DNA from: a virus
Virus record (IMG/VR): IMGVR_UViG_3300046557_000378
Length of the DNA stretch: 62,170 bases
Strand: one strand, 5' to 3'
Shown here: positions 4,225 through 55,624 of the stretch, piece by piece
Layout of the letters: every line of letters begins with the position of its first letter
Position numbering within the stretch: position 1 is the stretch's first letter
The notes under the pieces: generated by a model
Databases searched by the model: none
Seen by the model: the letters and a program-made list of their open reading frames with translations, nothing else
Told to the model about the DNA's origin: nothing
Made by a program: the position numbers and the translations under genes

Positions 4225-4226
4225 CC

Positions 4227-8322: not shown

Positions 8323-8412
8323 TCACCACGGCTACCGTGCGGTAAGGTCTGTCGAAAGTCAGTGATTGACGGTACTGTGCGTGCGGTAGCCGTGTGCCCT
8401 AGAGAGGTCAGG

Positions 8413-25538: not shown

Positions 25539-27454
25539 AGTACTTCCCCTACACCATCGCGGGCACGGAGACTATGACCCGCGTTCCGGAGACGGCCGCG
25601 GACCTCGACGAGTTCCGTCGGTGGGTGGAGAACAAGGCTCGCGCCGACGAGATGATCGGGGCGGACACGGAGACGACCGGACTCGACACGTTCTCTCCGA
25701 CGTACCGTCTGCGTACATCGCAGTTCGGCGACAAGCGGGACGCGTGGGTCCTTCAGACCGAACTCTCCGACCGCACCGCGGGAACGGCTCGGTGGGCGTT
25801 CGACGTGCTGCCCCGTCTCGTGCTCCATAACGCCACCTTCGACATGTTGGTCTTGGACCGTCACCTAGGGGTCCCGCTGGCGACGCTGGCGCCCAAGGTG
25901 ACGGACTCGAAGATTATCGCGCATCTGTTCGATTCGCGACCCCGACACGAGGGCGGCTACGGACTGAAGCTGAAGGAGCTGTGCGCGAGGGACATTGACC
26001 CCAACGCCCCTGACACGCAAGAGGACTTGACCGCTGTTTTCCGCTCCATCGGGGAGACGAAGGCCACCGGGTGGGCGAAGATCGACATCAACCACCCGAC
26101 CTACCTCCAGTACGCAGGACTTGACGCGATCCTCGTTTCTCGGTGGCTCCCTGTCGGCGAGGAACGGCTCCGCAAGGTCGGAGTTCGTCAGGCACTCGTG
26201 GACTTCGAGCACCGCGTGATGTACGTCTGCGCGGTCATGGAGCGCCGCGGGATGCTCGTCGACCAGGACTATGTGCGCCCGCTCGTGGAGCGGCTGACGG
26301 AGGAAGCGGCACTTCACGCCGGCAAGGCGTCGAAGTACGGCGTGAACTCCGTCAACGCTCCGGCGCAGGTCTCCGCGGCGCTGCTCGGCATGGGCGAGAC
26401 ACTGACGGAGCGCACGGACTCCGGCAACCTGAAGGTGGACAAGGAGATCCTCCAGGTTCTTGCCGACGTCGACCGGGATTGGGAGCGGATCGGCGCACGC
26501 AAGCCGAACCCTCTGGCGGACGCGGTTCTCCGCTCGAAGCGCGCGGGGAAGTGGGCGAAGTCGTACGGCGTCGCCATGCGCGACGGCCTGGACGTCGACG
26601 GCCGCATCCATCCGAACATCAACTCACTTCAGGCACGCACGGCGCGGATGTCCATCTCGCGTCCTCCGCTCCAGCAGCTCCCGTCGGGGGACTGGACGAT
26701 CCGGCGCGCGATGCTCGCGGACCCGGGGCACCGCATCTTCTCCGTCGACTACTCCGCGGTGGAGATGCGCGTCCTTGCCGCCCTGGCCGACGAGAAGACG
26801 ATGAAGCGTGCCATCGCGGAAGGTCGCGACCTGCACGACTTCACCGCCGAACTCATCTGGGGCCCGAACTTCACGAAGGGGCACCGAAAGATCGGCAAGG
26901 GTGTCGGCTTCGGGAAGGTCTACGGAGGCGGAGCAACGACCTTGAGCCGTCAGACTGGTGCCCCGCTGGACGAGGTGAAGCAGGCTGTTGCGGCGTACGA
27001 CAGGGTGTATCCGGGGATCAAGCGCTACTCGCGCGACGTCCAGCGGAAGGCACGGGCTAACGGCTACGTCGTCATCACACCCACGGGCCGGCGCCTGGCG
27101 CTGGACCGGGACAGGGTCTACGCGGCGACTAACTACGCGGTCCAGAGCACCGCGCGGGACGTGCTCTGCCAGGCCCTGTTGAACATGCACAACGCGGGTC
27201 TGACGGAGTACCTCCTCCTGCCGATCCACGATGAGTGCCTAGGGTCGGCCCCCGTCGACGTCGTGGACGAGGTGGCGCGAGAGGTGGGCGAGGCCATGCG
27301 GATGGACTTCTTCGGGGTCCCACTGGACACGGATCCGGAAGTCGGGGGCCGGAGTTGGGGGTCGCTGTACATGAAGACCCCTGACGGCAAGTACGACCAC
27401 GCTCTCCGCGCGCGGGAAGACGAGTGGTACGCAAGCGTGAGGCTGGCGGCATGA
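25535..27454 (+). CDS. family A DNA polymerase with 3'-5' exonuclease domain
   Basis: 639 aa; ExoI GADTETTGLD; RDLHD; motif B KIGKGVGFGKVYGGG; motif C LPIHDE. Confidence 0.9.
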   Translation: MKYFPYTIAGTETMTRVPETAADLDEFRRWVENKARADEMIGADTETTGLDTFSPTYRLRTSQFGDKRDAWVLQTELSDRTAGTARWAFDVLPRLVLHNATFDMLVLDRHLGVPLATLAPKVTDSKIIAHLFDSRPRHEGGYGLKLKELCARDIDPNAPDTQEDLTAVFRSIGETKATGWAKIDINHPTYLQYAGLDAILVSRWLPVGEERLRKVGVRQALVDFEHRVMYVCAVMERRGMLVDQDYVRPLVERLTEEAALHAGKASKYGVNSVNAPAQVSAALLGMGETLTERTDSGNLKVDKEILQVLADVDRDWERIGARKPNPLADAVLRSKRAGKWAKSYGVAMRDGLDVDGRIHPNINSLQARTARMSISRPPLQQLPSGDWTIRRAMLADPGHRIFSVDYSAVEMRVLAALADEKTMKRAIAEGRDLHDFTAELIWGPNFTKGHRKIGKGVGFGKVYGGGATTLSRQTGAPLDEVKQAVAAYDRVYPGIKRYSRDVQRKARANGYVVITPTGRRLALDRDRVYAATNYAVQSTARDVLCQALLNMHNAGLTEYLLLPIHDECLGSAPVDVVDEVAREVGEAMRMDFFGVPLDTDPEVGGRSWGSLYMKTPDGKYDHALRAREDEWYASVRLAA

Positions 27455-28838: not shown

Positions 28839-29630
28839 ATGAACCGCATCGAGGTCACGGACGAGCAGATCCTTGCCGCACAGACGGGCGACGGTGACGC
28901 CATGTGGGACATCGTCCAGTCGTTCGACCCCATGCTGAAGAGCATCATCCGCAGCGCCGCCCCGAGCGCCAGCGCGGAGGACGCGGAGGATCACCTCCAA
29001 GAGGGACGCGCGGTATTGATCCAGCACATTCGCGACTACGACTCGTCGTCCTCGTCGGCTCAACTCTCCTCCTACGTCTACCGTGCTGTGCGCCGCGCCA
29101 TCGCGGAGGCGGACGTCGTGTCGAAGACTCCACTCACCATTGACGCAACGGCGGCGCTCCGTGTGCGCTGGGCGCTGTGGGAGTGCGGGGGAGACACCGA
29201 GCGGGCGTGGGCGACGTTCCGTGACGCGACGTCGCCGACGAAACGGATGAGCCGGGAACTGTTCATCGCGATGGTGGAGGCACTCGCCGGTACGGAGAGT
29301 CTGGACAGTCCGTTCGCGGGATCGCTTACCAGGCGTGCGGGCGCGATGGAGCGGGACAACGGCCTGACGCTCGCCGACGTCCTGGAAGACCGGGCGACGT
29401 CGGTCACCGACCCCCTGGAGCGCCGCGACCTCGCACGCTGGCTCATGACGCAGATCCCGCAACGTCAGTCACTCGCACTCCGCGCTTTCTACGGCGTCGG
29501 CATGACTCGCATGACCGACCCGGAACTGTGCGCGGACCTGGAGGTCAACGGCGTCGCCCTCCGACGGCTCCGCTCCCGCGGAGTGGCCTCCGCCCGCACC
29601 GTGGCCGACGCTCACGACCTTGCTGCGTAA
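28839..29630 (+). CDS. sigma-70-family RNA polymerase sigma factor (group-3-like)
   Basis: 263 aa; region-2-like DAMWDIVQSFDPMLKSII...EDHLQEGRAVLIQHIRDYD...SYVYRAVRRAI; region-4-like IPQRQSLALRAFYGVGMTRMTDPELCADLEVNGVALRRLRSRG. Confidence 0.7.
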   Translation: MNRIEVTDEQILAAQTGDGDAMWDIVQSFDPMLKSIIRSAAPSASAEDAEDHLQEGRAVLIQHIRDYDSSSSSAQLSSYVYRAVRRAIAEADVVSKTPLTIDATAALRVRWALWECGGDTERAWATFRDATSPTKRMSRELFIAMVEALAGTESLDSPFAGSLTRRAGAMERDNGLTLADVLEDRATSVTDPLERRDLARWLMTQIPQRQSLALRAFYGVGMTRMTDPELCADLEVNGVALRRLRSRGVASARTVADAHDLAA

Positions 29631-33441: not shown

Positions 33442-34089
33442 ATGAGAGCCAACCTGCGGGATCCACTCCTGATTCAGGCCGTCATAGCCGCAGCCCTCTC
33501 CTTCGCGCACATCCACGACATCGCGGACGCCGCGGGGCAGCACGGGTGGAAGGCATGGGCGTACCCGATCAGCGTCGACCTCCTCTTGGTCATGGCCTGG
33601 AAGCAGATCCGGGAGGCCGCGGAGGGTGAGTCGAAGCGCGCGCCGTGGGTGTGGTTCCTCCTGTCCATGGCCGCGTCGATCGGGGCGAACATTGCGACGG
33701 CCGGCGTCCTCGACCTGGAGCATCCCCCGACGATCCTCCGCGTCCTCGTCGCCGGCTGGCCCGTGCTCGCGTTCTTTGGTGGCTCGTTGCTCGTCCACTC
33801 GCGCAAGCCACGCACGGATGGGTCGCAGGAGGCCGCTGGAGAGCCTGCGGGGGATCAGGTGGAGGAAGTGGTCCCGGAGCCCGTGAAAGTTACCCCTGCG
33901 CGCGTCCTGGTGTCGTACAAGGAGGCTGCCGACGTCCTGGGCGTGGCCGTCGAAACGGTGCGAGGCGCGGCGAACGGATCGAACCCCCGACTGATGAAGT
34001 ACCCGGCGCCGGATGACCCCCGAGCCGTCCGCGTCGACCTGAGCGAGGCCCGTAGGGTCATCAACAACCGTCGCCCCGTGGCTGGGTAA
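33442..34089 (+). CDS. DUF2637-like membrane protein with C-terminal excisionase/MerR-type HTH
   Basis: 215 aa; 4 TM N-terminal half (AALSFAHIHDIA...AYPISVDLLLV); C-terminal VSYKEAADVLGVAVETVRGAA. Confidence 0.6.
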   Translation: MRANLRDPLLIQAVIAAALSFAHIHDIADAAGQHGWKAWAYPISVDLLLVMAWKQIREAAEGESKRAPWVWFLLSMAASIGANIATAGVLDLEHPPTILRVLVAGWPVLAFFGGSLLVHSRKPRTDGSQEAAGEPAGDQVEEVVPEPVKVTPARVLVSYKEAADVLGVAVETVRGAANGSNPRLMKYPAPDDPRAVRVDLSEARRVINNRRPVAG

Positions 34090-34168
34090 AGCAGTTTTAA
34101 AAGACCATAGACATCCTGTGCTCCGGCCTAGGCGTTTCGTGACGCTTATGCCACCATAATTCCTGAGT

Positions 34169-34345
34169 ATGCCCTCTGAGAAGCGTAGCGGAGACGCCGC
34201 AACCTCCGCCCCCATAAAAGCCGCCGTTGACCTGCGGATTGGGGGAGTGCGCCTCACTGTTCAGCGAGTGCCTCCATGGCTCTTAGCCCTTCCGGCTTCG
34301 GTTATCGGTTCGGGCGCGGGCATGGCTTGGTGGACCCACCGATGA
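34169..34345 (+). CDS. small membrane-anchored protein (58 aa, below track cutoff), paralog of 41905-42063
   Basis: DLRIGGVRLTVQRVP...WW aligns with ELRIGGFRVTAERIP...WW. Confidence 0.5.
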   Translation: MPSEKRSGDAATSAPIKAAVDLRIGGVRLTVQRVPPWLLALPASVIGSGAGMAWWTHR

Positions 34346-34411
34346 CACCACGAGTTCCCGTCGACCACATCGGCGGGGGCTTCGCCATGTCCGGACGTAG
34401 GATCCTGCCAC

Positions 34412-34669
34412 GTGGCCGATATTTCGTTCGATGACCTGATCAACCTGGAGCGTGACGCCGTCGAGGCGTACGAGGTGGCGCGGACGCTGGACTACTCCGC
34501 GGAGGCGTGGAAGCCGTGGCTGGACGCTGCCGCAGCCTTCCATGCGGCTGTCACCGCGTACGCCAAGCAGGAGGGGAAGGACCGGATGTCGGTCGAGATG
34601 GACGTGAAGAAGACCGTCCGTCACCCGGCGCCGACAGAACCGCTCGTGTCCAGTGATAGCCCAGACTGA
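34412..34669 (+). CDS. hypothetical protein
   Basis: 85 aa; GTG start; helical. Confidence 0.5.
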   Translation: MADISFDDLINLERDAVEAYEVARTLDYSAEAWKPWLDAAAAFHAAVTAYAKQEGKDRMSVEMDVKKTVRHPAPTEPLVSSDSPD

Positions 34670-34778
34670 CTCCGTGCCGCCGGAGCTGGAGCGCCGAAAT
34701 TTGGTTTCTCTCGATCGCCGGTAGATGTCGGAATGCGCAGCGGTCTGGCTGGCGAGGTAGGGGCCAGATGCCCGGCTG

Positions 34779-35297
34779 TCAGCTGGATGACGGGGGATGG
34801 AACGGCGGAGCGGCCCGCGGGGGCGGCTGAATGCCTTCACCGCCGTCCCCCTGCAACTGCTCCGTACGCCCCGTGACGATCATCGTTTTCCGCTCCAGCA
34901 AGCTCCGGAATGTCTCCAGTGGCACCCCTCTCCGCCGCTCTCTCGCCTGGATGAGCGCGAATTTTGCCTGCGCATCCAGGACTAGCAAAGCGTTGGTGCG
35001 AACCCTTGCCTCCTCTGCACGGACCTGCGGGTGGAGGAAGCTGGCAGCAGCAACCAGACCTGCACTGATGAGAGCCAGGATCGCCGCTGGCACGCGAGCG
35101 CCTGTCGCCGTCAGACCTGTGGTGCCGGATATCGCGGCGATTACAGCCGCCGGCAACCCCAAGACAGAGTGCACCAGCTCCCAATTTCGCGCCTGGACAC
35201 TGCCAATGTGCGCAAGTCTTTGACAATCTTGGCGGAAATCTTCGATCTCGCTCTCCACGCTTCTCGGGACCGGCGCGTCGCCTGCGCTAGTGGCCAT
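34779..35297 (-). CDS. SLATT-like 2TM protein (tentative)
   Basis: 172 aa; N-terminal helix, TM hairpin VLGLPAAVIAAISGTTGL / VPAAILALISAGLVAAASFL, C-terminal helices; opposite strand to neighbours. Confidence 0.45.
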   Translation of the reverse strand: MATSAGDAPVPRSVESEIEDFRQDCQRLAHIGSVQARNWELVHSVLGLPAAVIAAISGTTGLTATGARVPAAILALISAGLVAAASFLHPQVRAEEARVRTNALLVLDAQAKFALIQARERRRGVPLETFRSLLERKTMIVTGRTEQLQGDGGEGIQPPPRAAPPFHPPSSS

Positions 35298-35572
35298 GAG
35301 ACCGCCCCCCTCGCTCTAAGACCTCGGACACGCGTCATCCGAACTTGGACCGAGGGTGGCACCGTGATGAGTGTCCGGCCAGCCCATCCACCAGAAATCT
35401 TGTGCAGCGTGGAGGCCTTACCTTTCCACATCCGCTAGGAGATACCGGAGTAGGCCGGGGCCGGGCGGACATGGAGCTAGGAATCGACAACGCGTGACCT
35501 ATGGTGAGCAGTATTGACGTAACTGCGCTGGACTACTGCTGTTCATGACGGCTGCGCTCTATCGTCGTTGGC

Positions 35573-36106
35573 ATGGGGGACGCCTTCTTGAAGGCTCGCA
35601 ACAAGGTACGGCTCGGCCGTCAACTGCGATGGGCAGGGGCTGGCGTCTTCTGCGCTGTGGCTCTGGCGGCGCTGCTTTTTCCCTTCTCGGGAGGGCATGC
35701 GCGGGCGCCCACTGTGGATCATTCCTACTCCTCACAATCCTCTCCCGTCTCGGTAGTTACTTCCCGGCCTTCAGACGAGGGGACGAGCGGCGGAGAGGGG
35801 GTGAGCCCGCCTGCGTCCATTCCGCCGCCAGCTTCATCGAACGGCGAGACAAGCCTGCCGTCGGCTAGCTCTGCTCAACCACAGCCTCCCGCGCCGTTGA
35901 CGCCGACGTCCAACTCGGCCGTGGTAGATGTCCCTCCGCCGTATGCCCCTGCGGAGCCCGGCGCCGGCACGAACAATGCGGCTGAGATCATCAAGGCGAC
36001 TGCTTACCTTGTTGGGGCGATCGGAGGCGCAGCGGCTGCGGTTGTTGGGCAGGTTGTCTCGATGCGCGCAACGCGAAGGACAGCGCCACGGGATATGGAT
36101 CCCTAG
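35573..36106 (+). CDS. membrane protein with Ser/Pro-rich low-complexity ectodomain
   Basis: 177 aa; N- and C-terminal TM segments. Confidence 0.55.
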   Translation: MGDAFLKARNKVRLGRQLRWAGAGVFCAVALAALLFPFSGGHARAPTVDHSYSSQSSPVSVVTSRPSDEGTSGGEGVSPPASIPPPASSNGETSLPSASSAQPQPPAPLTPTSNSAVVDVPPPYAPAEPGAGTNNAAEIIKATAYLVGAIGGAAAAVVGQVVSMRATRRTAPRDMDP

Positions 36107-36122
36107 GAGCCCCCACCGCGCG

Positions 36123-36157
36123 AGAGCCCCGCCGGATGATCCGACGGGGGCTCTTTG
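36123..36157 (+). terminator. intrinsic terminator
   Basis: AGAGCCCCGCCGG...CCGACGGGGGCTCT then TTG. Confidence 0.6.
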
Positions 36158-36403
36158 CGGCGTGCGTTGGGCGACGTCGCCGCGCTTCACGGCGTCGGCG
36201 AGTGCGCCCCACGCGGCACTGCCAAAGACGACTGCCCGCCCGGCATGGCTCAGAGCTCCGGAGGGGGACACGTGCGGCAGTACGGGAGGAACAGCGCCGT
36301 CGCCTGACGCACCGCGGGATGGCTCTAGGCACCCTTGACGTCTGCGCCCTCCGGCGTGATGGTCGTAGAACATTGCGCAACCCGCGTGACAACGGAGGTC
36401 ATC

Positions 36404-36646
36404 ATGGCTCTACGCTCATTCGGCAAGGACCCCGAAACCAACGGCGACCACTGCCCGACTGTGTGGCTCGACGAGGAGAAGCAGGAGTTTGTGTTCCAGG
36501 GGTGGAAGGCGGACGAGGTTCTCCAGGCAGAATGCCTTGCTACGGGATCCATCCCCGACACGGAGGCAGTCGTCCGGCTGCCTGCCCGCATGGTTCAGCA
36601 GATCAGGGAGGCGTGCGATGCCGCAGATGGTGCCGCCGTTCGGTGA
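36404..36646 (+). CDS. small protein, first gene of a three-gene cassette
   Basis: 80 aa; ATG after ACGGAGG; DHCPTVWLDEEKQEFVFQGWK; overlaps next gene by 29 nt. Confidence 0.55.
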   Translation: MALRSFGKDPETNGDHCPTVWLDEEKQEFVFQGWKADEVLQAECLATGSIPDTEAVVRLPARMVQQIREACDAADGAAVR

Positions 36647-37142
36647 ACTGATCGCAGGCTGTCACCACTCCGCCGTTCACCTGGAGACGCGGGACGTCTA
36701 CGGAGTCGAAGAAGAGGACGCCGACTTCGCAGCGTGGCGTAACGGACAGGCGTACGACCTGAGTGATCGGGCGTCCTGGTGGAACGGCTTCCATCAGTCC
36801 ATCGCTGACGCCGTGGCACGTGGCGTTACCGTTCGTCGTGCCCGCGTCGTGTCGGAGCCCGTCAGTGAGTACATCCGCTACGAGCATTCGTGCACGGCGC
36901 AGAACATCGCGGCCGGCGAAGACATTCGGTGGCTGCCGCGACGTCTGGCGTCGGATCTTCTGATCCCCGGCAACGACCTTTGGATCTTCGACGACCGACT
37001 GATCCGGTCCAGCCTCTTTGCAGGCGACGGACGGTTTGTCGTTGACGTCATGGAGGACGCGGCCGACGTCGTGAAGCGCCACGCAGAAGCGTTCGCTGCC
37101 GTCTGGGAACGTGCCATCCCGCACGAGGACTTCCGGATCTGA
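36618..37142 (+). CDS. DUF6879-like protein (tentative)
   Basis: 174 aa; SAVHLETRDVY...ARVVSEPVSEYIRYE...AGEDIRWLPRR...DLWIFDD pattern. Confidence 0.55.
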   Translation: MPQMVPPFGELIAGCHHSAVHLETRDVYGVEEEDADFAAWRNGQAYDLSDRASWWNGFHQSIADAVARGVTVRRARVVSEPVSEYIRYEHSCTAQNIAAGEDIRWLPRRLASDLLIPGNDLWIFDDRLIRSSLFAGDGRFVVDVMEDAADVVKRHAEAFAAVWERAIPHEDFRI

Positions 37143-37155
37143 GCGACGCGCACCG

Positions 37156-38007
37156 ATGCAATCTCCCTACCCGTCGACGGCTCTTGACGCCGCACGCCGC
37201 GCCATCGCGGAGCAACTCCGCGAGATCCGGCGTGACGCTGGGCTGACGGGTAGGGAGGTCGCAGCCCGCGCAGGGTGGTTGCCCTCGAAGGTCTCACGCC
37301 TCCAGAGCGCAACTACGCCCCCGTCGGACGACGACATCCGCGCATGGTGCGTCGCGTGCAACGCTGAGGACAGGGTCCCGGATCTCCTGGCGGCGAACCG
37401 CACGGCAGAGTCCATGTACTTGGAGTGGCGCCGTGTCCAGCGAACAGGGCTCAGGCGACTTCAGGAGTCGCGCATCCCGCTGTACGAGCGAACGCAACAG
37501 TTCCGCGTCTACAGCTCTACCGTCATCCCTGGCTTCCTCCAGACCTACGAGTATGCGGCGGCCCTCTTGGGGAACATCGCGCGCGTCCACGGCACACCAG
37601 ACGACGTCGACGACGCGGCAGCCGCGCGGGTCGAGCGCTCGCACATCATCCGCGAGGGAGGGCACCGCTTCGGGATCCTCCTGGAGGAGTCTGTTCTCCG
37701 CCACATTGTGGGGGAGGCAGCGACCATGGCGGGGCAACTGGGCTATCTACTCTCGGTGATGGCTCTGCCGTCCGTGTCGGTCGGGATCATTCCGGCGAGT
37801 AGACCGCGGGGGATGTGGACGCTGGAGACGTTCACGCTGTTCGACGACGAGCGCGTTCATGTGGAACTGCTGACGGCCGCTATCACCGTGACGACGCCCG
37901 GAGAGATCTCGCAGTACGCCCACGCGTTCGAGGAAATGGCGTCACTCGCGGTACACGGAGCCGGCGCGCGCACGCTCATCTCAGCGGCCATTGACTCGCT
38001 CGATTGA
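37156..38007 (+). CDS. XRE-family HTH regulator with DUF5753-like C-terminal domain (WhiJ/Scr1-type)
   Basis: 283 aa; HTH LREIRRDAGLTGREVAARAGWLPSKVSRLQS; long C-terminal domain with IPGFLQTYEYA. Confidence 0.65.
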   Translation: MQSPYPSTALDAARRAIAEQLREIRRDAGLTGREVAARAGWLPSKVSRLQSATTPPSDDDIRAWCVACNAEDRVPDLLAANRTAESMYLEWRRVQRTGLRRLQESRIPLYERTQQFRVYSSTVIPGFLQTYEYAAALLGNIARVHGTPDDVDDAAAARVERSHIIREGGHRFGILLEESVLRHIVGEAATMAGQLGYLLSVMALPSVSVGIIPASRPRGMWTLETFTLFDDERVHVELLTAAITVTTPGEISQYAHAFEEMASLAVHGAGARTLISAAIDSLD

Positions 38008-38097
38008 AGTTGCATAGAACTTCGTAGGATTCCGTGGAACTTCCCCTCCCGCCCGTTCTAGCTTCGACGTACAGAAGCCCGCGGCGGAGGTGCAGGG

Positions 38098-38319
38098 ATG
38101 GCGCTGGAGACGACGCTCAGAGAGCCCGTTCAACTGACAGACCCACTCGATGCCGAGCCCCCGGAACCGGCGCCCGGCTGTGACGTCTGCGGCGCGCTGA
38201 TGCGGCAGTGGAGGCAGGCAACGGAGAAGGGAAGTCCCGCGCACGACCCGTCGCACGCAACGGACCTTGCCGTCGAAATCAAACGGCACCCGCACGCGTG
38301 GCAGAAGGAGAAGCGGTGA
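38098..38319 (+). CDS. hypothetical protein
   Basis: 73 aa; coupled (GTGA) to next ORF. Confidence 0.45.
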   Translation: MALETTLREPVQLTDPLDAEPPEPAPGCDVCGALMRQWRQATEKGSPAHDPSHATDLAVEIKRHPHAWQKEKR

Positions 38320-38807
38320 CGGGAATAGATCCCTTCCCCGAGGTGCGTACGCGCGTTGAACTCGGCGCCTTGCCGCCACGTGAGTGGATCGAGTGCGCGG
38401 GGTGCCTCGAACACGAATCCGTGGGCGATCCCATCGATCAGATGCTCTGGGCGGGGCAGCACGCCAAAGAGCATCCCGCCCACGACCGGTTTCGTACCGT
38501 GCGCCAGTCTGCCTTCCGCATCGCGCCGGCGGGGTTCGCCGTATCTGTCGACGTTCAGAGCGCCGAGGACGAGCCCGTATGCGACGTCACGGTCACGCTC
38601 CCCAGTGATCCGGAGTGGCTGACGCGGTTCGGCTTCGAACCGAAATTGGGCAGCGTCACCGTGACGTGCAGCGAACCGCCCCATACAGGCGCGGAGGGGG
38701 ACGTCGTCCACTGTGGTCACATCTTTGGCGACGACGGAGAGACGGTGACCGGCACCTACTACTGGGGTCCTGGCTACCGCCCGACGTCGCTTGCGCCACC
38801 CCCCTGA
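38316..38807 (+). CDS. hypothetical protein, N-terminus DUF7848-like (tentative)
   Basis: 163 aa; ECAGC...WAGQHAKEHPAHDRFRTV pattern. Confidence 0.5.
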   Translation: MTGIDPFPEVRTRVELGALPPREWIECAGCLEHESVGDPIDQMLWAGQHAKEHPAHDRFRTVRQSAFRIAPAGFAVSVDVQSAEDEPVCDVTVTLPSDPEWLTRFGFEPKLGSVTVTCSEPPHTGAEGDVVHCGHIFGDDGETVTGTYYWGPGYRPTSLAPPP

Positions 38808-39200
38808 GCCCGCTCGCTGGCTGCCTGTGCAGTTGGCGCGCGGCGGGCGCAGCGGGGGTCTGGGGTAGCTGATGTGAGGTCGGCCGACGCCCCAACCCCC
38901 GCCAGCGTCCGAACTCCTCGTCTCCGGCGTGCCCATCACACACGGCCGCGGACGAGGTGCCGACGTGGTTGGTTTCGCACCTTCCTGGCCACGTCGGAGC
39001 TGGGATCCCGCTCGTCCGTCTGCCGTGACTTGGGCGAGCGGGGTTCCCAGCGCCAGAACTTCCCGTCCCGAGCGATCGGAGGCGGGGCACCGCCCGTCGG
39101 TGGAGTCCCTGTCGCCAGGGACTGCCCGGGGCGGTACAGGAGCCCCACTCGTGCGACGTCCCCCGCGTTGCGTGAGTGGGGCTTCTTCATGATGCTGACA

Positions 39201-39248
39201 TACGCAGGTTCTTCTAGTACGACAACCCGTACACGGGATACCTGCGTA
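39201..39248. other. candidate attP (48-bp imperfect inverted repeat)
   Basis: TACGCAGGT...ACCTGCGTA perfect 9-bp outer arms, inner GTACG/CGTAC symmetry, centre AA; ends 15 nt before int ATG. Confidence 0.45.
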
Positions 39249-39263
39249 GGTATACTCGGACTC

Positions 39264-40826
39264 ATGACAACCCGCGTACTGGGCGCCAGGCGGCTGAGCC
39301 GCGTCAAGGACAACTCGACATCGTTCGAGCGGCAAGGCATAGCCATCGAGACGGTAGCCGCGTCTGTTGGGGGAGAAGTCGTCGCGTGGGCGGACGACCC
39401 TGACGTCAGTGCCGCGAAGGTGGCACCTAAGGACCGTCCGGAACTTGGCCCCTGGTTCGAGCGCCCCGACGAGTTCGACGCTATCGCATGGTGGAGGCTC
39501 GACAGGGCCGTTCGAAGCATGCGGGATATGGCATGGCTTGCAGGGTGGGCGCGCGATAAGAAAAAGCGTTTGATCTTCGCTGAAGGACCCGGCGGGGGAC
39601 GCCTTGAACTCGATATGTCGTCCCCCATGTCAGAGCTGATTCTGATGATTCTGGCCTTCGCCGCTCAGATGGAAGTCCAGGCAATTCAGGAGCGCACGGA
39701 AGGATCTACTGAATACCTCCGCAGCGTCGGCCGATGGAAAGGCGGACGGGTGCCTTTCGGGCGCATGCCGATCCCACATCCGGAGGAAGGCGAAGGATGG
39801 TGGCTGGGACGTCACGACAAAACAGCGAGCATCGTTGACGACATGGTGAAGCTCGTGATCGACGGAACGTCGTACAACGCACTCGCCGCGTGGCTAAACA
39901 GCAAACACCCTGGCGTCACGCCTTCCAATCACCGCCGTTCCCTGGCCACTCCGCCGAAAGAGCCGGACCCCAACGTCCGTTGGAATCCAGGGATGGTGAG
40001 TTCGTTCCTCCGTCAACCGTCGTTGAGGGGGTGGTCGATGATCGGCGACGATCCCGTGCGTGACGAGGAGGGTGAGCCCGTCAGGCTGGGTCCGCCTCTG
40101 ATCGACGATGAGACATGGAGGAGGCTCCAGGCGGAAATGGACACCAGGGAAGGAAACGGGGGCCGCAACAAGAGCGACACGCACCCGCTCCTGGGCGTTG
40201 CCTACTGCGGATCATGCGAAGGCAAGCTGTACCAAGGGTGGATCTCTGCCGGGGAGCGTCGCACAGCCAAGCGGCAGTACCGATGCGCAGCGAAGGCGCA
40301 CGGGCGCATATGCCGTAAGCCCGCGTACGTCACGGCGGATCCGGTGGACGAGTGTGTCGAAGAGGCCTTCCTCGATCAGTTCGGCCGCTTCGAGTTGATC
40401 GAGGTCATCGTCATCCCCGGTGTGGACCGCCGCGACGAGATCAAGGAGTTGGAGGCGGACGTCGAGACCCTCGCCGGGCAACTGGCCAACCTCCGCGGCG
40501 CTGCTGCGGACGCCGTCGGCCGGCAGATACAGGGGCGGTCCGACAAGCTTGCGCGTCTCCAGGAACAACCTGTCATTCCCGCGCGAACGGAGGAGGTGCG
40601 TACAGGCGTGACCTACGGCGACGCATGGCGCCGGGCAAAGGCCGACAGGGACTTGCATGCGTGCCGGAAGATGCTCCGCGATGTCGGGCTCCGTGTGACC
40701 GTTGGAGAGACGTACCGGGGCGCCCGTGACGTTCGCGCAAGGCTCAGTGTGGATGTGGTGACGCCGGATGACGTTGATCTCGCCCAGGATGCCCTTGACG
40801 ACGTGGCGGAGCAGGAGCGCCATTAG
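39264..40826 (+). CDS. int: large serine recombinase (integrase)
   Basis: 520 aa from ATG 39264; N-terminal RLSRVKDNSTSFERQ catalytic-Ser motif, Bxb1-like order; TATACT 39251-39256 suggests a leaderless mRNA; the 130 upstream in-frame codons are Arg-rich and non-coding-like. Confidence 0.85.
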   Translation: MTTRVLGARRLSRVKDNSTSFERQGIAIETVAASVGGEVVAWADDPDVSAAKVAPKDRPELGPWFERPDEFDAIAWWRLDRAVRSMRDMAWLAGWARDKKKRLIFAEGPGGGRLELDMSSPMSELILMILAFAAQMEVQAIQERTEGSTEYLRSVGRWKGGRVPFGRMPIPHPEEGEGWWLGRHDKTASIVDDMVKLVIDGTSYNALAAWLNSKHPGVTPSNHRRSLATPPKEPDPNVRWNPGMVSSFLRQPSLRGWSMIGDDPVRDEEGEPVRLGPPLIDDETWRRLQAEMDTREGNGGRNKSDTHPLLGVAYCGSCEGKLYQGWISAGERRTAKRQYRCAAKAHGRICRKPAYVTADPVDECVEEAFLDQFGRFELIEVIVIPGVDRRDEIKELEADVETLAGQLANLRGAAADAVGRQIQGRSDKLARLQEQPVIPARTEEVRTGVTYGDAWRRAKADRDLHACRKMLRDVGLRVTVGETYRGARDVRARLSVDVVTPDDVDLAQDALDDVAEQERH

Positions 40827-40923
40827 GTTACGGATTCATAACGTCGGAGTAGTGTCATCGCACACCCTTTGGGTATCTCGGTGGCGTTGGCAGCCGTCTC
40901 GTCCACGTCGACCAGCGTCCCCA

Positions 40924-40977
40924 TCATCCACAGGCGTCTGTGGATAACTGCAAAGCGTTACCGGTTTCTGTGGATTC
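40924..40977. other. cluster of three DnaA-box-like 9-mers
   Basis: TCATCCACA (40924-40932, +), TGTGGATAA = TTATCCACA (40939-40947, -), TGTGGATTC (40969-40977, -). Confidence 0.35.
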
Positions 40978-41021
40978 GCAACACTGCGTAGTCACGTGAC
41001 CCGTCGAACGGTCCAAAACGT

Positions 41022-41090
41022 CAAACTAACCCCCTACTTCTAACTCTTCTAATACGCGTTAGAGAGAAGTAGAAAAAGGGGGTTAGTTTG
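41022..41090. repeat. 69-bp AT-rich imperfect palindrome, copy 2
   Basis: About 85% identical to 9231-9299; preceded by CCAAAACGT (reverse complement of the copy 1 3' flank). Confidence 0.9.
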
Positions 41091-41127
41091 CCACTCTGTC
41101 GCACCCCCGCCGGAGGGTGCTACCAAG

Positions 41128-41157
41128 ATCACTACCGCGTCACACTTCCCCCATAAC
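41128..41157 (+). promoter_or_regulatory. phage-specific promoter-like motif, copy 5 (spacer 10 bp shorter)
   Basis: CCGCGTCACA-c-TTCCCCCATAAC; an alternative -35-like ATCACT lies 18 nt upstream of CATAAC. Confidence 0.4.
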
Positions 41158-41355
41158 AGTAGTAGGAGGGGAGGACGTGCGGCCGTCGCGAATGGCGGAC
41201 GGTCCGCTCCCCTCCCTGACGGCCGGCGCCGCTCCTGCGCTCCCCGTACTCTCTCCTCCGGGTTGAGCGCGGTTGAGCGGCCCCGGCTGTCCCAAGACTT
41301 CCTTGCCCGGTGCATGGGACTTCGACCCGCTCGAAGCCCGGAACGGGGGAGGGTA

Positions 41356-41467
41356 GATCACGTAGTGCAGCGGCCAAGCACACCCGAGGGAGTAGGGATC
41401 GAGTCCCGCCGTCTGACGGCAAGTGGTCGCCCCTGGCGTATCGCCGGTTCGAATCCGGTCGTGATCA
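41356..41467 (+). ncRNA. tRNA-like element (acceptor, D and T arms; 60-nt non-canonical core)
   Basis: GATCACG-TA-GTGC-AGCGGCCAA-GCAC ... GCCGG-TTCGAAT-CCGGT-CGTGATC-A. Confidence 0.4.
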
Positions 41468-41646
41468 CTCGCTGTGTGGAGGGTTCGAAAGCGAGCGCGG
41501 ATTGTGAGAGCGCGTGATGCCACGCAGTGGTCATGGTTCCGGGTAAGTCCCCGGCACGCGACGACCAACACCCGGACCTTGTGGGTCCGTGGCGAGTCCA
41601 CTTGCGCCCCGTACGGCGGGGAGGCGGCATACGGACTCACAACCCA

Positions 41647-41671
41647 CCCCGTCCCTTGTGGGCGGGGTTTT
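41647..41671 (+). terminator. intrinsic terminator
   Basis: CCCCGTCCC-ttgt-GGGCGGGG then TTTT. Confidence 0.75.
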
Positions 41672-41745
41672 CGACGTCACCGGAGCCGGACGCGAAGCGG
41701 TGACGCGGTCAGGACTTCGCGCCACTGGCCGCACGGTGACGTCAA

Positions 41746-41819
41746 GCCTCCGTAGCTCAGTTGGCTAGAGCGCTGCTCTCGTAAAGCAGAGGTCGCGCGT
41801 TCGACTCGCGCCGGGGGCT
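41746..41819 (+). tRNA. tRNA-Thr (anticodon CGT)
   Basis: Hand-folded cloverleaf: acceptor GCCTCCG/CGGGGGC, D arm GCTC-AGTTGGCTA-GAGC, anticodon arm CTGCT-CTCGTAA-AGCAG, T arm GCGCG-TTCGACT-CGCGC. Confidence 0.85.
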
Positions 41820-41823
41820 CTCA

Positions 41824-41901
41824 CGGGACGTGGCCAAGTTGGTTCAGGGCGCCCGCTTTGGGAGCGGGAGGGCGAAGGTTCGAGTCGCACCATCCCGACC
41901 A
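41824..41901 (+). tRNA. tRNA-Pro (anticodon TGG) with encoded CCA and aberrant T stem
   Basis: C1-G72, A73, anticodon arm CCCGC-TTTGGGA-GCGGG; T stem GAAGG/CGCAC pairs only at its two ends. Confidence 0.6.
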
Positions 41902-41904
41902 TAA

Positions 41905-42063
41905 CTAGTGTCCCGCCCACCAGGTGAGTGCGGCGGTTGCAACTCCGGTAAGTGCCGACAGGGCTTTCACGGGGATGCGCTCTGCTGTGACGCGGAAGCC
42001 TCCGATGCGGAGCTCGAAGTATGGCGCTGTCTTGGCGGTGATGTCGCGCTGGCCGCTCGTCAT
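41905..42063 (-). CDS. small membrane-anchored protein, paralog of 34169-34345
   Basis: 52 aa from internal ATG of track ORF 41905-42096. Confidence 0.45.
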   Translation of the reverse strand: MTSGQRDITAKTAPYFELRIGGFRVTAERIPVKALSALTGVATAALTWWAGH

Positions 42064-42213
42064 GGTGTGTCCTCCCACCGCTGCACGTGACTGCACGCGA
42101 ACTGTGCCACGAGCTTCAGACGGCCTGGAATCCTCTTAACGAAGAGGGCGACCGGTTGCAAGACTGGGGCACGCCGGGGAAAACTGAAGATTAGATGACT
42201 TTCACCCGAGACG

Positions 42214-45444: not shown

Positions 45445-47154
45445 ATGCCGCACGTCACTGTGCGCGCCCCCGGTCACGACCGCTCCCGCTCGCTCGGGTG
45501 GCTGTCGGTCGCATGGATGGAGTACTTCGTCGTGCACGGCCCTGGTGACGTCCAGGGAGAGCCTGTACGCCACGGCGACGAGTACACAGGCTTCGTCGTT
45601 GACTGCTACGCGGTTGACGACGACGAGGGAAAACTCCTCTACGACTCCGCGTTCTTCTCCCGCCCGAAAGGGTGCGATAAGAGCGGGCTCGGTGCCCGCA
45701 TCGGGCTCTTCGAGGCGTTCGGCCCCTGCCGGTTCGACGGATGGGCGGAAGGCGGTGAGGTCTACGAGGACCCTTGGGGTCTCGGCTTCGAGTACGTCTA
45801 CGAGCCCGGTGAGCCGATGGGACGCCCGGTCCGCGTCCCGTACCTCCGCATCATGGCAACGGAGGAAGGCCAGACCGGCAACGTCTACGACACCATCCAT
45901 TTCAACCTGACCGACGAGGCGTCACGCCTTTCGCAAATCCCGGGCGTAGACCCCGGATTGACAAAGATCAACCTTCCCGACGGCGGAGAGATAACGCCGT
46001 CAACGGCGTCCGCATCGTCGAAAGACGGCGGTAAGGAAACGTGGGTCTGTTTCGACGAGACCCATCTGTACAACACGCCTGAACTGCGCCGGATGTACAC
46101 GACAATGACTCGTAACCTCCGGAAGCGAAAGAAGAACGCCGGCACATGGTATTTGGAAACAACGACCATGTTCGCCCCCGGTCAAGACTCTGTAGCTGAA
46201 AAGACCTACGAGGAAGCCGAAGCCATCCGTGAGGGGAGGAAAAAGCGCGGTCGCGCGCGACTCCTCTACGACCACCGATACGGCGTCTGCAAAGACCTCA
46301 AGAACGAGGACGAACTCCGCGCGGCGCTGATCGACTCCTACGGCGACGCCATGGAGTGGATGGACATCGAGACCCTTGTCGATGACTTCTACGACCTGCG
46401 TAACGATGCCGCGGACGGCAAGCGCTACTTCCTCAACTCCCGGACGTCCTCCTCCGACGCGTGGATGGACTCCGACGCGTGGGAGGTATGCCGCCGGCCG
46501 GAGGAGATAGCCCCCGGTGAACTGGTCACACTCGGGTTCGACGGCTCGATTCGCGACGACGCAACGGCGTTGTGCGCCTGTCGGGTGTCTGACGGGCACC
46601 TGCAACTTCTCGGCGTCTGGGAGAAGCCCGAAGGGCCCGAAGGCGAGGGCTGGCAAGTCGACCGCGAGTCCGTTGACAACACCGTTGCCCGAGCGTTCGA
46701 CAAATACGAGGTCTGCGGTTTCTACTGCGACCCGCCGCACTGGCAGGACTACGTGGACAAATGGACGTCGGAGCACAGCGAAGGCCTCCAGGTGTGCGCC
46801 ACACAGGCACGCCCGCTGGAATGGTGGACCAACCGGCCAACGGCGATGGAACACGCGTTGGACCGCTTCGTTGAGGCCGTTGACGACAAGGCGTTGTCGT
46901 TTGCCGGAACTGAACGCTCGGATGACGAGGAATCGTTTTCCAAACTCGGGGCAACGCTCACCCGTCACGTACTAAACGCCAAGCGACGCCCGATGGGGCG
47001 CAACCACATGGGCATCGGCAAGGAACACGCTAAGTCCTCGAAGAAAATCGACGCCGCCATGTCCGCCACGCTCGCTTACGAGTGCCGCGCTGACGCCATC
47101 GCGGCCGGAATCACGAAGCGCAAAAAGCGCTCGTCCAAGCTACACGCCTTTTAG
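45445..47154 (+). CDS. terminase large subunit
   Basis: 569 aa; position and size; ATPase then nuclease-like halves (CFDETH, GFDGS...D). Confidence 0.85.
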   Translation: MPHVTVRAPGHDRSRSLGWLSVAWMEYFVVHGPGDVQGEPVRHGDEYTGFVVDCYAVDDDEGKLLYDSAFFSRPKGCDKSGLGARIGLFEAFGPCRFDGWAEGGEVYEDPWGLGFEYVYEPGEPMGRPVRVPYLRIMATEEGQTGNVYDTIHFNLTDEASRLSQIPGVDPGLTKINLPDGGEITPSTASASSKDGGKETWVCFDETHLYNTPELRRMYTTMTRNLRKRKKNAGTWYLETTTMFAPGQDSVAEKTYEEAEAIREGRKKRGRARLLYDHRYGVCKDLKNEDELRAALIDSYGDAMEWMDIETLVDDFYDLRNDAADGKRYFLNSRTSSSDAWMDSDAWEVCRRPEEIAPGELVTLGFDGSIRDDATALCACRVSDGHLQLLGVWEKPEGPEGEGWQVDRESVDNTVARAFDKYEVCGFYCDPPHWQDYVDKWTSEHSEGLQVCATQARPLEWWTNRPTAMEHALDRFVEAVDDKALSFAGTERSDDEESFSKLGATLTRHVLNAKRRPMGRNHMGIGKEHAKSSKKIDAAMSATLAYECRADAIAAGITKRKKRSSKLHAF

Positions 47155-55217: not shown

Positions 55218-55624
55218 AGGCCGACCTCCTCCGCTACTTCAACGTCGACGTCCTTGACGTCTACCGCGGGCGGATGTCCATACGCAGGCTGCGGGTGCTC
55301 ATTGAGCACCTGCCGTCGGAGAGCGCGACCCTGACCGCCATCCGTCGGTCGATGCCCGTGAGCGAGCTGGAGCGTGCGACCGAGGAGCACCGTCCGGACC
55401 TCGCTCCCTGGAGCGGTACGGAAGTTCTCCTGGCGACCCTGACGGACGAGGTACGCCTCCTCCGCATGATCACGGTGGCTGCCAACGGCGGAACGCCGGA
55501 GCCATTCACACCTACGCCACGACCGGGGGTTCCCCCGAAGTCCGCGCAACAGAAGCGGGGGCTCACCGAAGAGCAGCGCCGCGCGCTTGACCCGCGGCTG
55601 AGAAATCAGACGCAGGAGGCGTAG
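54894..55624 (+). CDS. tail assembly chaperone, -1 frameshift fusion (GT-like)
   Basis: -1 frame open from the slip site to 55624; downstream frame equals track ORF 55049-55624. Confidence 0.75.
55166..55172 (+). promoter_or_regulatory. -1 programmed frameshift slippery heptamer G_GGA_AAG
   Basis: In zero frame CCG GGA AAG; identical to the lambda G/GT slip sequence. Confidence 0.75.

Follow-up and report, generated by a model that had tools for sequence, protein, structure and literature searches.

The window analyzed here is a stretch of 62,170 nt of viral DNA (IMG/VR record IMGVR_UViG_3300046557_000378), and it carries a module of ~2.7 kb (~36318-39000) adjoining the integrase gene int, a position already recognized in an earlier, sequence-only reading of this DNA (Table 1). 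The module consists of five genes and two promoter regions and is larger than the three-gene unit first described: the genes for an 80-aa protein, a DUF6879 protein and an XRE-DUF5753 regulator, which formed the cassette in that reading, do belong to it, but two more co-conserved genes for a 73-aa protein and a DUF7848 protein have to be added. All five genes follow each other in this order on the (+) strand, and the description as a compact co-directional unit holds. The three open reading frames named at first lie exactly where they had been placed and the peptide strings quoted from them are present in the translations. Genes 1 and 2 overlap by 29 nt, and genes 2 and 3 are separated by a gap of 13 nt. 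No in-frame TTA (bldA-dependent) codon was seen in genes 1-3 when the sequence was read by eye, and a search with Rfam over 35500-42000 returned two tRNAs and nothing else.

Table 1. Features of the module and its surroundings; positions refer to the 62,170-nt window.
Feature	Position	Strand	Remarks
GC-rich hairpin	36122-36155	+	16 nt past the stop of ORF 35573-36106
Promoter/operator region of the cassette (first region)	36318-36403	+	non-coding conservation across loci with unrelated flanks
CTCTAG element, first region	36323-36328		
-35 element, first region	36335-36340		TTGACG; 17-nt spacer
-10-like element, first region	36358-36363		GATGGT
Half-sites, first region	36364-36371; 36375-36381		CGTAGAAC; GCGCAAC; 10-bp phase
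Palindrome, first region	36373-36380		TTGCGCAA
Gene 1	36404-36646	+	80 aa; unnamed family; RBS GGAGG at 36394-36398
Gene 2	36618-37142	+	DUF6879 protein, 174 aa; Pfam PF21806
Gene 3	37156-38007	+	WhiJ/Scr1-type regulator, 283 aa; Pfam HTH_31 + DUF5753
Second regulatory region	38013-38061	+	upstream of gene 4; conserved in 10 loci
Three half-sites, second region	38013-38040		CATAGAAC, CGTAGGAT, CGTGGAAC; 10-bp phase
Inverted half-site copy, second region	38055-38061		GTTCTAG
Gene 4	38098-38319	+	73 aa; CxxC motif and histidines; unnamed family; gene-caller supported
Gene 5	38316-38807	+	163 aa; N-terminal DUF7848; Pfam PF25232
Probable attP region	38996-39251		inverted-repeat candidates
Candidate inverted repeats, attP region	38996-39009 with 39041-39054; 39198-39209 with 39240-39251		
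Terminator-like hairpin	39138-39186	+	21-nt arms, then TTCTTC; between cassette and int
Large serine integrase (int)	39264-40826	+	PHROG 95, E 9e-80; Resolvase + Recombinase; context, not part of the cassette

The Pfam search supported both families that the sequence-only reading had named. The gene 2 product matches DUF6879 (PF21806) with 184.3 bits (cut-off 23.9, E 1.6e-54) over profile positions 3-166 of 167, and the regulator matches HTH_31 with 43.6 bits (residues 17-72) and DUF5753 with 113.8 bits (residues 113-276). The two upstream partners had been regarded as unstudied, and we likewise found no mention of DUF6879 in the literature searched. Invariant polar residues are dense in the DUF6879 family (H21, E23, D26, R74, R76, E101, R108, D120, D125 and others) and absent from DUF5753; such a set is as compatible with a catalytic or ligand-binding site as with an interface. 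The single lysine of the DUF6879 protein, K154, lies outside the invariant or nearly invariant columns. None of the cassette proteins matched a toxin family in Pfam, PHROGs, PADLOC or NCBIfam, and a search of solved structures by sequence gave HTH matches for the regulator only and chance matches for the other two proteins.

Despite the absence of a family match in Pfam, PHROG, PADLOC or NCBIfam, the 80-aa reading frame is a real conserved gene, with 98 close homologues, 346 cluster representatives (50% identity) at E <= 1e-3 and with D9, P10, P18, D23, G33, W34, P51, E54, R58, P60, R62 and M63 invariant in the alignment of the family. The small gene is located upstream of the DUF6879 gene in 151/166 cases, the usual overlap being 29, 32, 26 or 23 nt (29-35 nt with independent gene callers), and natural fusions of both proteins occur in P0325 (three independent contigs), L148 and L041. 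The 80-aa protein is an obligate partner for DUF6879. The possibility that it represents a diverged DUF397 protein was rejected at the sequence level: an hhalign comparison with DUF397, for which an alignment was derived from the fetched loci, gave P 0.18, and DUF397 was absent from the Pfam matches of 22 family members even at E <= 10, where chance matches only were obtained (e.g. Subtilosin_A in 4/22).

The regulator is composed of an XRE HTH (17-72), a long helix and the DUF5753 domain (~107-283), which contains no lysine. It matches PHROG 9908 and, weakly and with the HTH only, PHROGs of repressor families. The NCBIfam equivalog model Sco1979 scores 83.4 bits, far below the cut-off of 350, and the protein is accordingly a paralogue within the Sco1979 family and not an equivalog. 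Its identity to a canonical phage-borne XRE regulator is ~29%. The gene 4 family is linked to the cassette in 21 loci, in 15 of them directly after the XRE gene and in 6 divergently upstream, and the 73-aa protein shares 63% identity with the copy in the S. albidoflavus group. The start of gene 5 overlaps the stop of gene 4 (GTGA). DUF7848 (PF25232) was found at residues 24-72 of its product with 26.2 bits, just above the cut-off of 24.5; the chromosomal counterpart scores 52.5 bits, and DUF7848 genes also come after the cassette in chromosomal loci.

The cassette promoter was located by conservation across loci; a scan for sigma-70-type promoters over 34000-41500 found nothing. Both promoter regions share one class of motif, namely phased GTAGAAC repeats. 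The 18-bp operator-like element of the first region (36364-36381) occurs once in the 62-kb genome, and within the phage genome the 18-mer or the pattern of phased half-sites is confined to this element and to 38014-38040. One extra match to the operator pattern with 3 mismatches is located inside a coding region and is within chance expectation. The conserved operator-like element overlaps the cassette promoter, and autoregulation by the regulator is predicted from this arrangement. XRE HTH dimers usually bind palindromes. The half-sites observed here are mostly direct repeats, and it is possible that the binder could be another protein of the module.

Two hairpins flank the cassette. The sequence-only reading had credited the cassette with a terminator of its own upstream of gene 1, and the hairpin itself is real (centroid stem of -21.6 kcal/mol), but it lacks a U-tract, does not fold better than shuffled sequences (z = -1.3) and was not called by the terminator scan. 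This hairpin lies outside the mobile module and may terminate the upstream ORF 35573-36106. For the second one, between cassette and int, a similar hairpin is found upstream of int in phage Samy.

The synteny of the module was analyzed for 166 DUF6879 genes in 160 fetched loci. In 147/166 cases a small gene is located upstream and an XRE gene downstream on the same strand, which is far beyond chance, and the exceptions are mostly due to contig ends. A variant order XRE-DUF397-DUF6879, with DUF397 directly upstream of DUF6879, ties DUF6879 to the canonical XRE/DUF397 pairs. The statement that such families are mostly chromosomal in Streptomyces was supported. Furthermore, 88 plasmids carry the cassette, and in 70/80 IMG/VR contigs it lies near the ends of predicted proviruses, an enrichment that could partly reflect host DNA drawn in by the boundary prediction. 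In genomes of the S. albidoflavus group the same module with the same promoter is embedded among ordinary metabolic genes, with no phage genes. Homology with the locus of S. prunicolor begins at ~36318 and breaks at ~38998, so that the block has sharp ends.

The region 38996-39251 probably holds attP, as suggested by its repeats, the break in homology with S. prunicolor and the situation in Samy, where the stretch from the 5' end of int to the adjacent gene contains the att repeat. In an integrated prophage the cassette would then form the terminal gene block on one side. Samy and Picard hold XRE/DUF397 pairs in the corresponding slot beside int. The Samy pair was over-expressed in 10/10 non-inducing conditions, and the authors of the Samy study discuss lysogen-expressed genes as possible morons, including ones for resistance to other phages; SAMYPH_32 is the putative repressor of this phage (PMC11302927). 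Expression in a lysogen has been seen only for a 29%-identical paralogue of the regulator in another phage. In the window, a homologue of the PhiC31 c-type repressor (the proposed repressor of Samy, SAMYPH_32) is encoded at 8362-9180 (62% identity, E 1e-105) and spans 7696-9180 together with a SprT-like neighbour. Among 50,697 phage records, only Kromp (MH744420) has a DUF6879 gene. Its genes gp31-gp30-gp29 correspond to the first three genes of the cassette, in the same order and with the same 29-nt overlap; gp31 is a member of the 80-aa family, the proteins are 49% identical to those described here and all three are annotated as hypothetical. The Kromp cassette lies between tail/lysis genes and an integrase gene, but this integrase is of the tyrosine type and not a serine integrase as here, genes for the 73-aa protein and DUF7848 are missing and the promoter-proximal repeats differ in sequence. 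An immunity repressor is annotated separately in Kromp. A SLATT/2TM effector-like gene (E 1.4e-15) was found 1.1 kb upstream of the cassette in the window; linkage of such a gene to the cassette was observed in 0/160 loci.

Structural models were obtained with AlphaFold2 (pLDDT 94.5 for DUF6879 and 89.8 for the regulator). Foldseek matched the DUF6879 model to 48 PDB chains at E <= 1e-3, and among the matches listed all have either a PLD fold (PLD3, PLDs, Zucchini, FAM83 and its relative BJ-TSA-9, poxvirus F13) or are effector domains of the TrmB family; matches in BFVD were likewise of PLD type, including poxvirus F13-like proteins. The DUF5753 domain of the regulator matched a PLD (7e0m, E 5.5e-5) and also FAM83, NucT, Nuc, Zucchini and TrmB/TrmBL2. 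The TM-scores are modest at ~0.5 (target-normalised ~0.5-0.6 to single-domain PLD nucleases), with rmsd values of 5-7 A. In both models the order of secondary-structure elements is identical (H-E-H-H-E-H-E-E-E-E-H). A comparison of DUF6879 with DUF5753 by hhalign gave P 2-3e-5 in both directions (reversed controls 0.08), but the sequence similarity depends on alignment depth, because profiles from shallower alignments gave P 0.15 and 0.06, which is not significant. The HKD motif HxK(x)4D(x)6GSxN is absent from both proteins, and no histidine in the translated DUF6879 protein precedes x-Lys. According to the models, both DUF6879 and the DUF5753 domain adopt a PLD-superfamily fold lacking HKD and should be catalytically dead.

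In size and fold both domains resemble the single-domain PLD nucleases Nuc, NucT and Zucchini/PLD6, which work as dimers with one site formed from two domains. These nucleases have HxK(x)4D, whereas DUF6879 and DUF5753 do not, and nuclease activity cannot be assumed. As HKD is absent, we compared both with binding domains rather than with enzymes: the TrmB effector domain and the DUF1669 domain of FAM83 are catalytically inactive PLD folds with a binding function, and both are among the Foldseek matches. TrmB resembles the regulator in having a PLD-like domain attached to a DNA-binding one, but the HTH of TrmB is a winged helix and not of the XRE type. Neither TrmB nor FAM83 shows sequence similarity to DUF6879 or DUF5753, and we know of no stand-alone copy of the PLD-like domain encoded beside TrmB.

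On the side of the regulator, the closest comparison is with the WhiJ-SCO4542 and Scr1/Scr2 (SCO4441/4442) clusters, as the HTH_31 + DUF5753 architecture is common to all of them. WhiJ-like XRE-DUF5753 regulators are present in 10 to >20 copies per Streptomyces genome and affect sporulation and antibiotic production (PMC4255298; PMC10364602), and the WhiJ-type family is multi-copy, restricted to actinomycetes and horizontally mobile (PMC4255298), as is the cassette. In both cases a small partner gene is located beside the regulator gene. The partners differ: in the cassette the 80-aa family and DUF6879 are encoded upstream, whereas the WhiJ-type partner is a DUF397 protein encoded downstream, and the cassette has two extra downstream genes (73-aa, DUF7848). 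Neither the 80-aa nor the 73-aa protein gave a DUF397 match, and the control DUF397 partners in L023 and Samy were recognized. A gene for an anti-sigma-factor-like ATPase (SCO4544 type), which is optional in WhiJ-type clusters, was not found among the ORFs of 33442-38807. According to the WhiJ model, SCO4542, a small DUF397 protein, lifts the repression exerted by WhiJ (PMC4255298).

Taking these data together, we regard the cassette, with somewhat more confidence than doubt, as a WhiJ-type signalling module that is autonomous and horizontally mobile, carried by a PhiC31/Samy-like temperate Streptomyces phage in a variable, lysogeny-expressed accessory slot by attP and int. The XRE-DUF5753 protein would bind the GTAGAAC repeats and control its own operon as well as that of genes 4 and 5, and DUF6879 together with the 80-aa protein would correspond to the sensor domain of the regulator but without an HTH. 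PLD-fold domains normally work in pairs, as in the two-domain dimers of the PLD nucleases; therefore, we propose that the small-protein/DUF6879 unit pairs with DUF5753 or competes for it. Through pairing or competition, some signal would shift the regulator from its DNA-bound to its free state or back, by the same logic as in the published model of the relief of WhiJ repression by SCO4542. A lysogen would express the module and be altered in its physiology (development, antibiotic production) or in its response to incoming phages, and the module would not maintain lysogeny. A more specific version appears possible but rather doubtful to us. It assumes that DUF6879 and the 80-aa protein form an HTH-less paralogue of the sensor domain that controls WhiJ-type regulators through a mixed pair of dead PLD-like domains, and that phages like this one, Kromp, Samy and Picard use such modules for reprogramming the development of the host or for detecting superinfection.

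The sequence-only reading had offered an immunity repressor module, a toxin-antitoxin-like unit or a defence unit as explanations. The cassette is not the immunity module of the phage. An XRE HTH protein encoded beside int, its weak HTH-only matches to repressor families and the lysogen expression of the Samy paralogue would be in line with a repressor of lytic genes whose induction is modulated by the two upstream proteins. This explanation is largely refuted and we consider it highly improbable, as the window encodes the PhiC31 c-type repressor homologue with its SprT-like neighbour elsewhere, the operator motif is confined to the cassette and is not found at lytic promoters outside it, the identical module with its promoter is present on plasmids and on chromosomes without phage genes, and in both Kromp and Samy a different gene carries the repressor annotation. 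A toxin-antitoxin or abortive-infection unit, in which DUF6879 would be a nuclease or phosphodiesterase toxin, the 80-aa protein perhaps an adaptor or chaperone and XRE-DUF5753 the autoregulating antitoxin, can be considered as well: a compact unit is found in multiple copies and in mobile form on chromosomes, plasmids and a phage and at provirus ends, XRE/DUF397 pairs were earlier proposed as TA systems (PMC2701414), nucleases with a PLD fold exist (Nuc, Zucchini, PLD3), DUF6879 has many invariant charged residues and the SLATT-like effector gene is close by. Nevertheless, we judge it unlikely. HKD is absent and K154, the sole lysine of DUF6879, is not conserved, PADLOC and the known toxin families gave no match, and for 14 related XRE/DUF397 pairs no toxicity was seen in S. 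coelicolor (PMC10364602). Furthermore, the 190-aa domain of the regulator and the putative toxin share a fold, which argues for paralogous partners rather than for toxin and antidote, and the two further co-regulated genes have no role in such a scheme.

It is also conceivable that the module serves as a switch for defence or superinfection exclusion, with the regulator silencing effectors (genes 4 and 5 of the cassette, or genes of the host) until the small-protein/DUF6879 unit senses an incoming phage and sets the regulator free. This would agree with the accessory slot by int, where the paralogous Samy module is lysogen-expressed among the suggested morons, with the SLATT/2TM neighbour, with a weak HTH match of the regulator to the defence regulator capH (PADLOC, E 0.0047) and with the observation that many genomes have the module in mobile or variable regions only. 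We nevertheless assign it the same low probability as the toxin-antitoxin unit. In PADLOC-DB 2.0 the 80-aa, DUF6879, 73-aa and DUF7848 proteins gave no match and the regulator weak HTH matches only, linkage of the SLATT gene to the cassette was seen in none of the 160 loci, the module of the S. albidoflavus group is located among ordinary metabolic genes, and the effects of the WhiJ-type modules studied so far concern development and antibiotic production rather than resistance to phages (PMC4255298; PMC10364602).

How WhiJ-like regulators sense their signal and what their C-terminal domain is have been standing questions since the whiJ work (PMC4255298; PMC10364602). With a WhiJ-type signalling module as the preferred reading, the PLD-like structural assignment of DUF5753 and DUF6879, the conserved and unstudied set of partners and the conserved operator motif make the mechanism directly testable. 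If true, the mixed pairing of PLD-like domains would constitute a previously undescribed signalling principle and would account for the switching of the many WhiJ/DUF5753 regulators in Streptomyces. At a single slot by the integrase gene, related temperate phages of Streptomyces exchange WhiJ-type modules of different kinds, and this exchange in combination with the transcription in the Samy lysogen suggests that developmental regulators of host type routinely arrive in the host together with a prophage.

The three ORFs that the sequence-only reading had placed at 36404-36646, 36618-37142 and 37156-38007 are present there, and its family guesses for the second and third were confirmed by Pfam, which assigned gene 2 to DUF6879 (184.3 bits, E 1.6e-54, nearly the whole profile covered) and gene 3 to HTH_31 plus DUF5753 (43.6 and 113.8 bits, respectively). 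The 80-aa protein encoded by gene 1 has no family match in Pfam, PHROG, PADLOC or NCBIfam; it is conserved, with 98 close homologues and 346 cluster representatives (E <= 1e-3; library of 1.84 billion proteins). No mention of DUF6879 was found in the searchable literature. Using profiles of the three proteins, we searched the ORFs of 80 genomic and 80 IMG/VR loci encoding DUF6879 relatives. The grouping of DUF6879 with an XRE-DUF5753 regulator is borne out by these neighborhood statistics: of 86 DUF6879 genes found in genomic loci, 75 are immediately preceded by the small gene and immediately followed by the regulator gene, all on one strand, and the same arrangement occurs in 72 of the 80 viral loci, the remainder being mostly truncated at contig ends. 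The overlap of genes 1 and 2 is almost always 29, 32, 26 or 23 nt in the fetched loci, so that the frame relation is constant, and 29-35 nt according to independent annotations.

Features of the phage genome and of the cassette (window coordinates)
Feature	Coordinates	Strand	Remarks
Tail fibre	4158-6590	+	C-terminal domain (residues 722-810) matches polysaccharide deacetylase PHROG, E 7.6e-25
SprT-like metalloprotease	7696-8322	+	SAMYPH_31 homologue, 63% identity
Putative PhiC31 c-type immunity repressor	8362-9180	+	SAMYPH_32 homologue, 62% identity, E 1e-105
Primase	23025-25538		
DNA polymerase	25535-27454		
RNA polymerase sigma factor	28839-29630	+	PHROG 351, E 3.5e-14
DUF2637 protein	33442-34089	+	67.8 bits; 'excisionase' PHROG match; 81% nucleotide identity to SAMYPH_86 (PhiC31 gp25-like)
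SLATT-like/2TM effector protein	34779-35297	-	172 aa; PADLOC '2TM effector' E 1.4e-15; NCBIfam SLATT_4 44 bits, under 55-bit cut-off
Promoter/operator region before gene 1	36323-36381		CTCTAG-N6-TTGACG-N17-GATGGT, immediately followed by CGTAGAAC-ATT-GCGCAAC, then RBS
Gene 1	36404-36646		80 aa; preceded by GGAGG at 36394-36398
Gene 2 (DUF6879)	36618-37142		174 aa; 29-nt overlap with gene 1; GGGAGG upstream
Gene 3 (XRE-DUF5753 regulator)	37156-38007		283 aa
Half-sites in regulator/73-aa gene spacer	38013-38040		three half-sites in phase; inverted copy at 38055-38061
Gene 4	38098-38319		73-aa protein
Gene 5	38316-38807		DUF7848 protein
Large serine integrase	39264-40826		
Two tRNA genes	41746-41901		
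Large terminase	45445-47154		
Portal	47167-48681		
Tape measure protein	55624-60651		

As a conserved unit, the cassette extends beyond three genes. Of the 160 loci, 21 contain a homologue of the 73-aa protein, directly after the regulator in 15 and divergently upstream in 6, and the phage and chromosomal proteins share 63% identity. The gene 5 product exceeds the Pfam threshold for DUF7848 (26.2 vs 24.5 bits), and a DUF7848 gene also follows in chromosomes of the S. albidoflavus group and of S. violaceus. DNA homology to an S. prunicolor contig extends from about 36318, just upstream of the -35 box, to about 38998, beyond which the contig carries an unrelated P450-like gene; the transferable block therefore comprises five genes in about 2.7 kb.

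The non-coding DNA 5' of gene 1 is conserved among loci with unrelated flanks, and its two half-sites, in a 10-bp phase, overlap the expected transcription start. At the equivalent position more distant loci carry CGTAGAAG-TC-TGTAGAAG or CATGGAAC-ATC-CTGCAAC, and the half-site array in the spacer after the regulator is conserved in all 10 aligned loci. The operator-like 18-mer occurs only once in the 62-kb phage, even with three mismatches allowed, and outside the two arrays the phased pair pattern has a single match there, with three mismatches and within a coding region, which is no more than chance would give. Both scans of the 62-kb phage gave no indication of regulator targets outside the module.

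The 80-aa protein and DUF6879 are fused into a single polypeptide in several lineages. One such fusion of 252 aa (P0325) occurs on three independent contigs directly upstream of a split cassette, and further fusions were found in an IMG/VR locus (L148) and in S. spirodelae (L041); the small domain is also tandemly duplicated in some proteins. In a variant locus (L023), which reads XRE-DUF5753, DUF397, DUF6879, the position of the 80-aa protein is taken by DUF397, and this connects DUF6879 with the canonical WhiJ-type pairs. Sequence comparison detected no similarity of the 80-aa family to DUF397. Canonical XRE-DUF5753/DUF397 pairs often lie just upstream (about 0.4-1.5 kb) of the cassette (L021, L034, L042, L050, L067), and therefore two kinds of WhiJ-type module cluster. 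Within 4 kb, the S. spirodelae locus combines its fusion protein and a regulator with a second DUF6879 gene and an XRE/DUF397 pair in divergent orientation. In metagenome contigs that have both fused and split cassettes (L169-L171), the regulator is followed by a radical SAM/SPASM-like gene, and in S. albidoflavus-group loci (L166-L168) a radical SAM gene points towards the module from the opposite strand; this link is perhaps a coincidence.

AlphaFold2 gave confident models of DUF6879 (pLDDT 94.5, pTM 0.89) and of the regulator (pLDDT 89.8). A Foldseek search of the PDB placed the DUF6879 model in the phospholipase D superfamily (best E 7e-7, query-normalised TM about 0.5), with matches to PLD3, bacterial PLDs, Zucchini/PLD6, FAM83 DUF1669, poxvirus F13 and the TrmB/TrmBL2 effector domain, and a viral structure library returned the PLD family again. 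The N-terminus of the regulator matched XRE-type HTH proteins and its DUF5753 part 7e0m (E 5.5e-5), FAM83, NucT, Nuc, Zucchini and the TrmB sugar-binding domain. DUF6879 and the DUF5753 part of the regulator model have one identical order of secondary-structure elements, H-E-H-H-E-H-E-E-E-E-H, and the modeled structures show a common fold. Profile-profile comparison of diverse alignments from the fetched loci gave P 2.8e-5 one way and 1.8e-5 the other (controls: reversed sequences P about 0.08, HTH part P 0.32). Shallower alignments of database hits recovered the C-terminal register without significance (P 0.15 and 0.06), and for this reason we regard common ancestry only as likely. The translated sequences of both domains lack the catalytic HKD motif: DUF6879, with one lysine, has no HxK, and the DUF5753 domain has no lysine at all. 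As DUF6879 retains invariant polar residues missing from DUF5753 (H21, E23, D26, Y28, R74, R76, E101, R108, D120, D125, H169 and others), it may have a ligand-binding site or some activity of a non-canonical kind. We found no mention of the PLD-like nature of both domains in the searchable literature.

The window is the genome of a temperate siphovirus related to the PhiC31-like Streptomyces phage Samy. The phage sigma factor is another host-type regulator aboard, and the DUF2637 gene forms the left border of a variable slot in common with Samy. Samy (SAMYPH_91/90) and Picard (gp25/gp24) each have an XRE-DUF5753 gene and a DUF397 gene in this slot, with early or lysis genes on one side and the serine integrase on the other. 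In published transcriptomes the two Samy genes belong to the small set of prophage genes that are over-expressed in each of 10 non-inducing conditions (PMC11302927). The regulator of our phage is only 29% identical to SAMYPH_91 and the integrases 27% over about 350 residues; therefore, the slot is conserved and its contents are exchanged. Two paralogous small ORFs, 34169-34345 (+, 58 aa) and 41905-42096 (-, 63 aa), with 37% identity (E 6e-8), the motif LRIGG(V/F)R(L/V)T.(Q/E)R(V/I)P and a hydrophobic tail, flank the accessory region and the integrase on both sides. Two imperfect inverted repeats (38996-39054 and 39198-39251) lie in the 455 bp that separate the DUF7848 gene from the integrase, and the homology break with the S. 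prunicolor contig falls inside the first. Most probably attP is located between 38996 and 39251, and either repeat could be its core; with attP there, the cassette would be the last gene block at one prophage end. The S. prunicolor contig may derive from one end of a related prophage, or from an island next to the P450-like gene.

DUF6879 relatives are abundant in Streptomyces and the related mycelial actinomycetes Kitasatospora, Actinomadura, Streptosporangium and Catenulispora, with several copies in some genomes (L013/L025, L033/L071), and occur on 88 plasmids. Among 50,697 phage records only Streptomyces phage Kromp has one: its gp31-gp30-gp29 correspond to genes 1-3, each with a hypothetical annotation, and lie between tail/lysis genes and the integrase. 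In a 34-kb circular element the cassette adjoins an integrase. Furthermore, 70 of the 80 IMG/VR cassettes lie at most 10 kb from a contig end, about three quarters of these within 4 kb, which matches a site beside the attachment site, although host DNA from boundary prediction may contribute.

The sequence-only reading had offered an immunity repressor module as one option, and this is contradicted by four independent observations: Kromp has its immunity repressor annotated on a different gene, outside gp31-gp30-gp29; the module also resides, away from phage genes, in S. albidoflavus-group chromosomes; the 18-mer is unique in the phage; and the homologue of SAMYPH_32, the putative immunity repressor of Samy (PMC11302927), is another gene. 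Judged by these homologies, the immunity region is likely the metalloprotease/repressor pair and not the cassette. DUF6879 could also be the effector of a toxin-antitoxin or abortive-infection unit, as the unit is mobile and multi-copy and DUF6879 combines a PLD fold with invariant charged residues, but neither known toxin families nor an HKD motif lend support. A defence switch is suggested solely by the position of the cassette and by the neighboring SLATT-like protein, a candidate stand-alone membrane effector, in the phage accessory region, of the kind known from CBASS and retron-like defence systems; however, such a gene lies beside the cassette in none of the 160 other loci.

In the whiJ model, the regulator represses development until the adjacent small protein SCO4542 (DUF397) interacts with it and lifts repression (PMC4255298), and 14 XRE/DUF397 pairs of S. 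coelicolor behave as pleiotropic regulators, not as toxin-antitoxin systems (PMC10364602). From the conserved non-coding DNA we infer that the module's own regulator would bind the phased GTAGAAC repeats and control two operons within the module, its own and that of the 73-aa and DUF7848 genes. Gene fusion and the conserved gene overlap suggest that the 80-aa protein works with DUF6879 as a single functional unit. Because of the common PLD-like fold, and as PLD-fold domains normally act in pairs (Nuc, Zucchini), this unit may pair with the DUF5753 domain, or compete for it, and thereby switch the regulator. The cassette is a regulatory module of the WhiJ type whose set of partners is unstudied, and a temperate phage carries it as an accessory unit; new are its five-gene extent, the candidate shared operator, the gene fusions and the PLD-like nature of DUF6879 and DUF5753.
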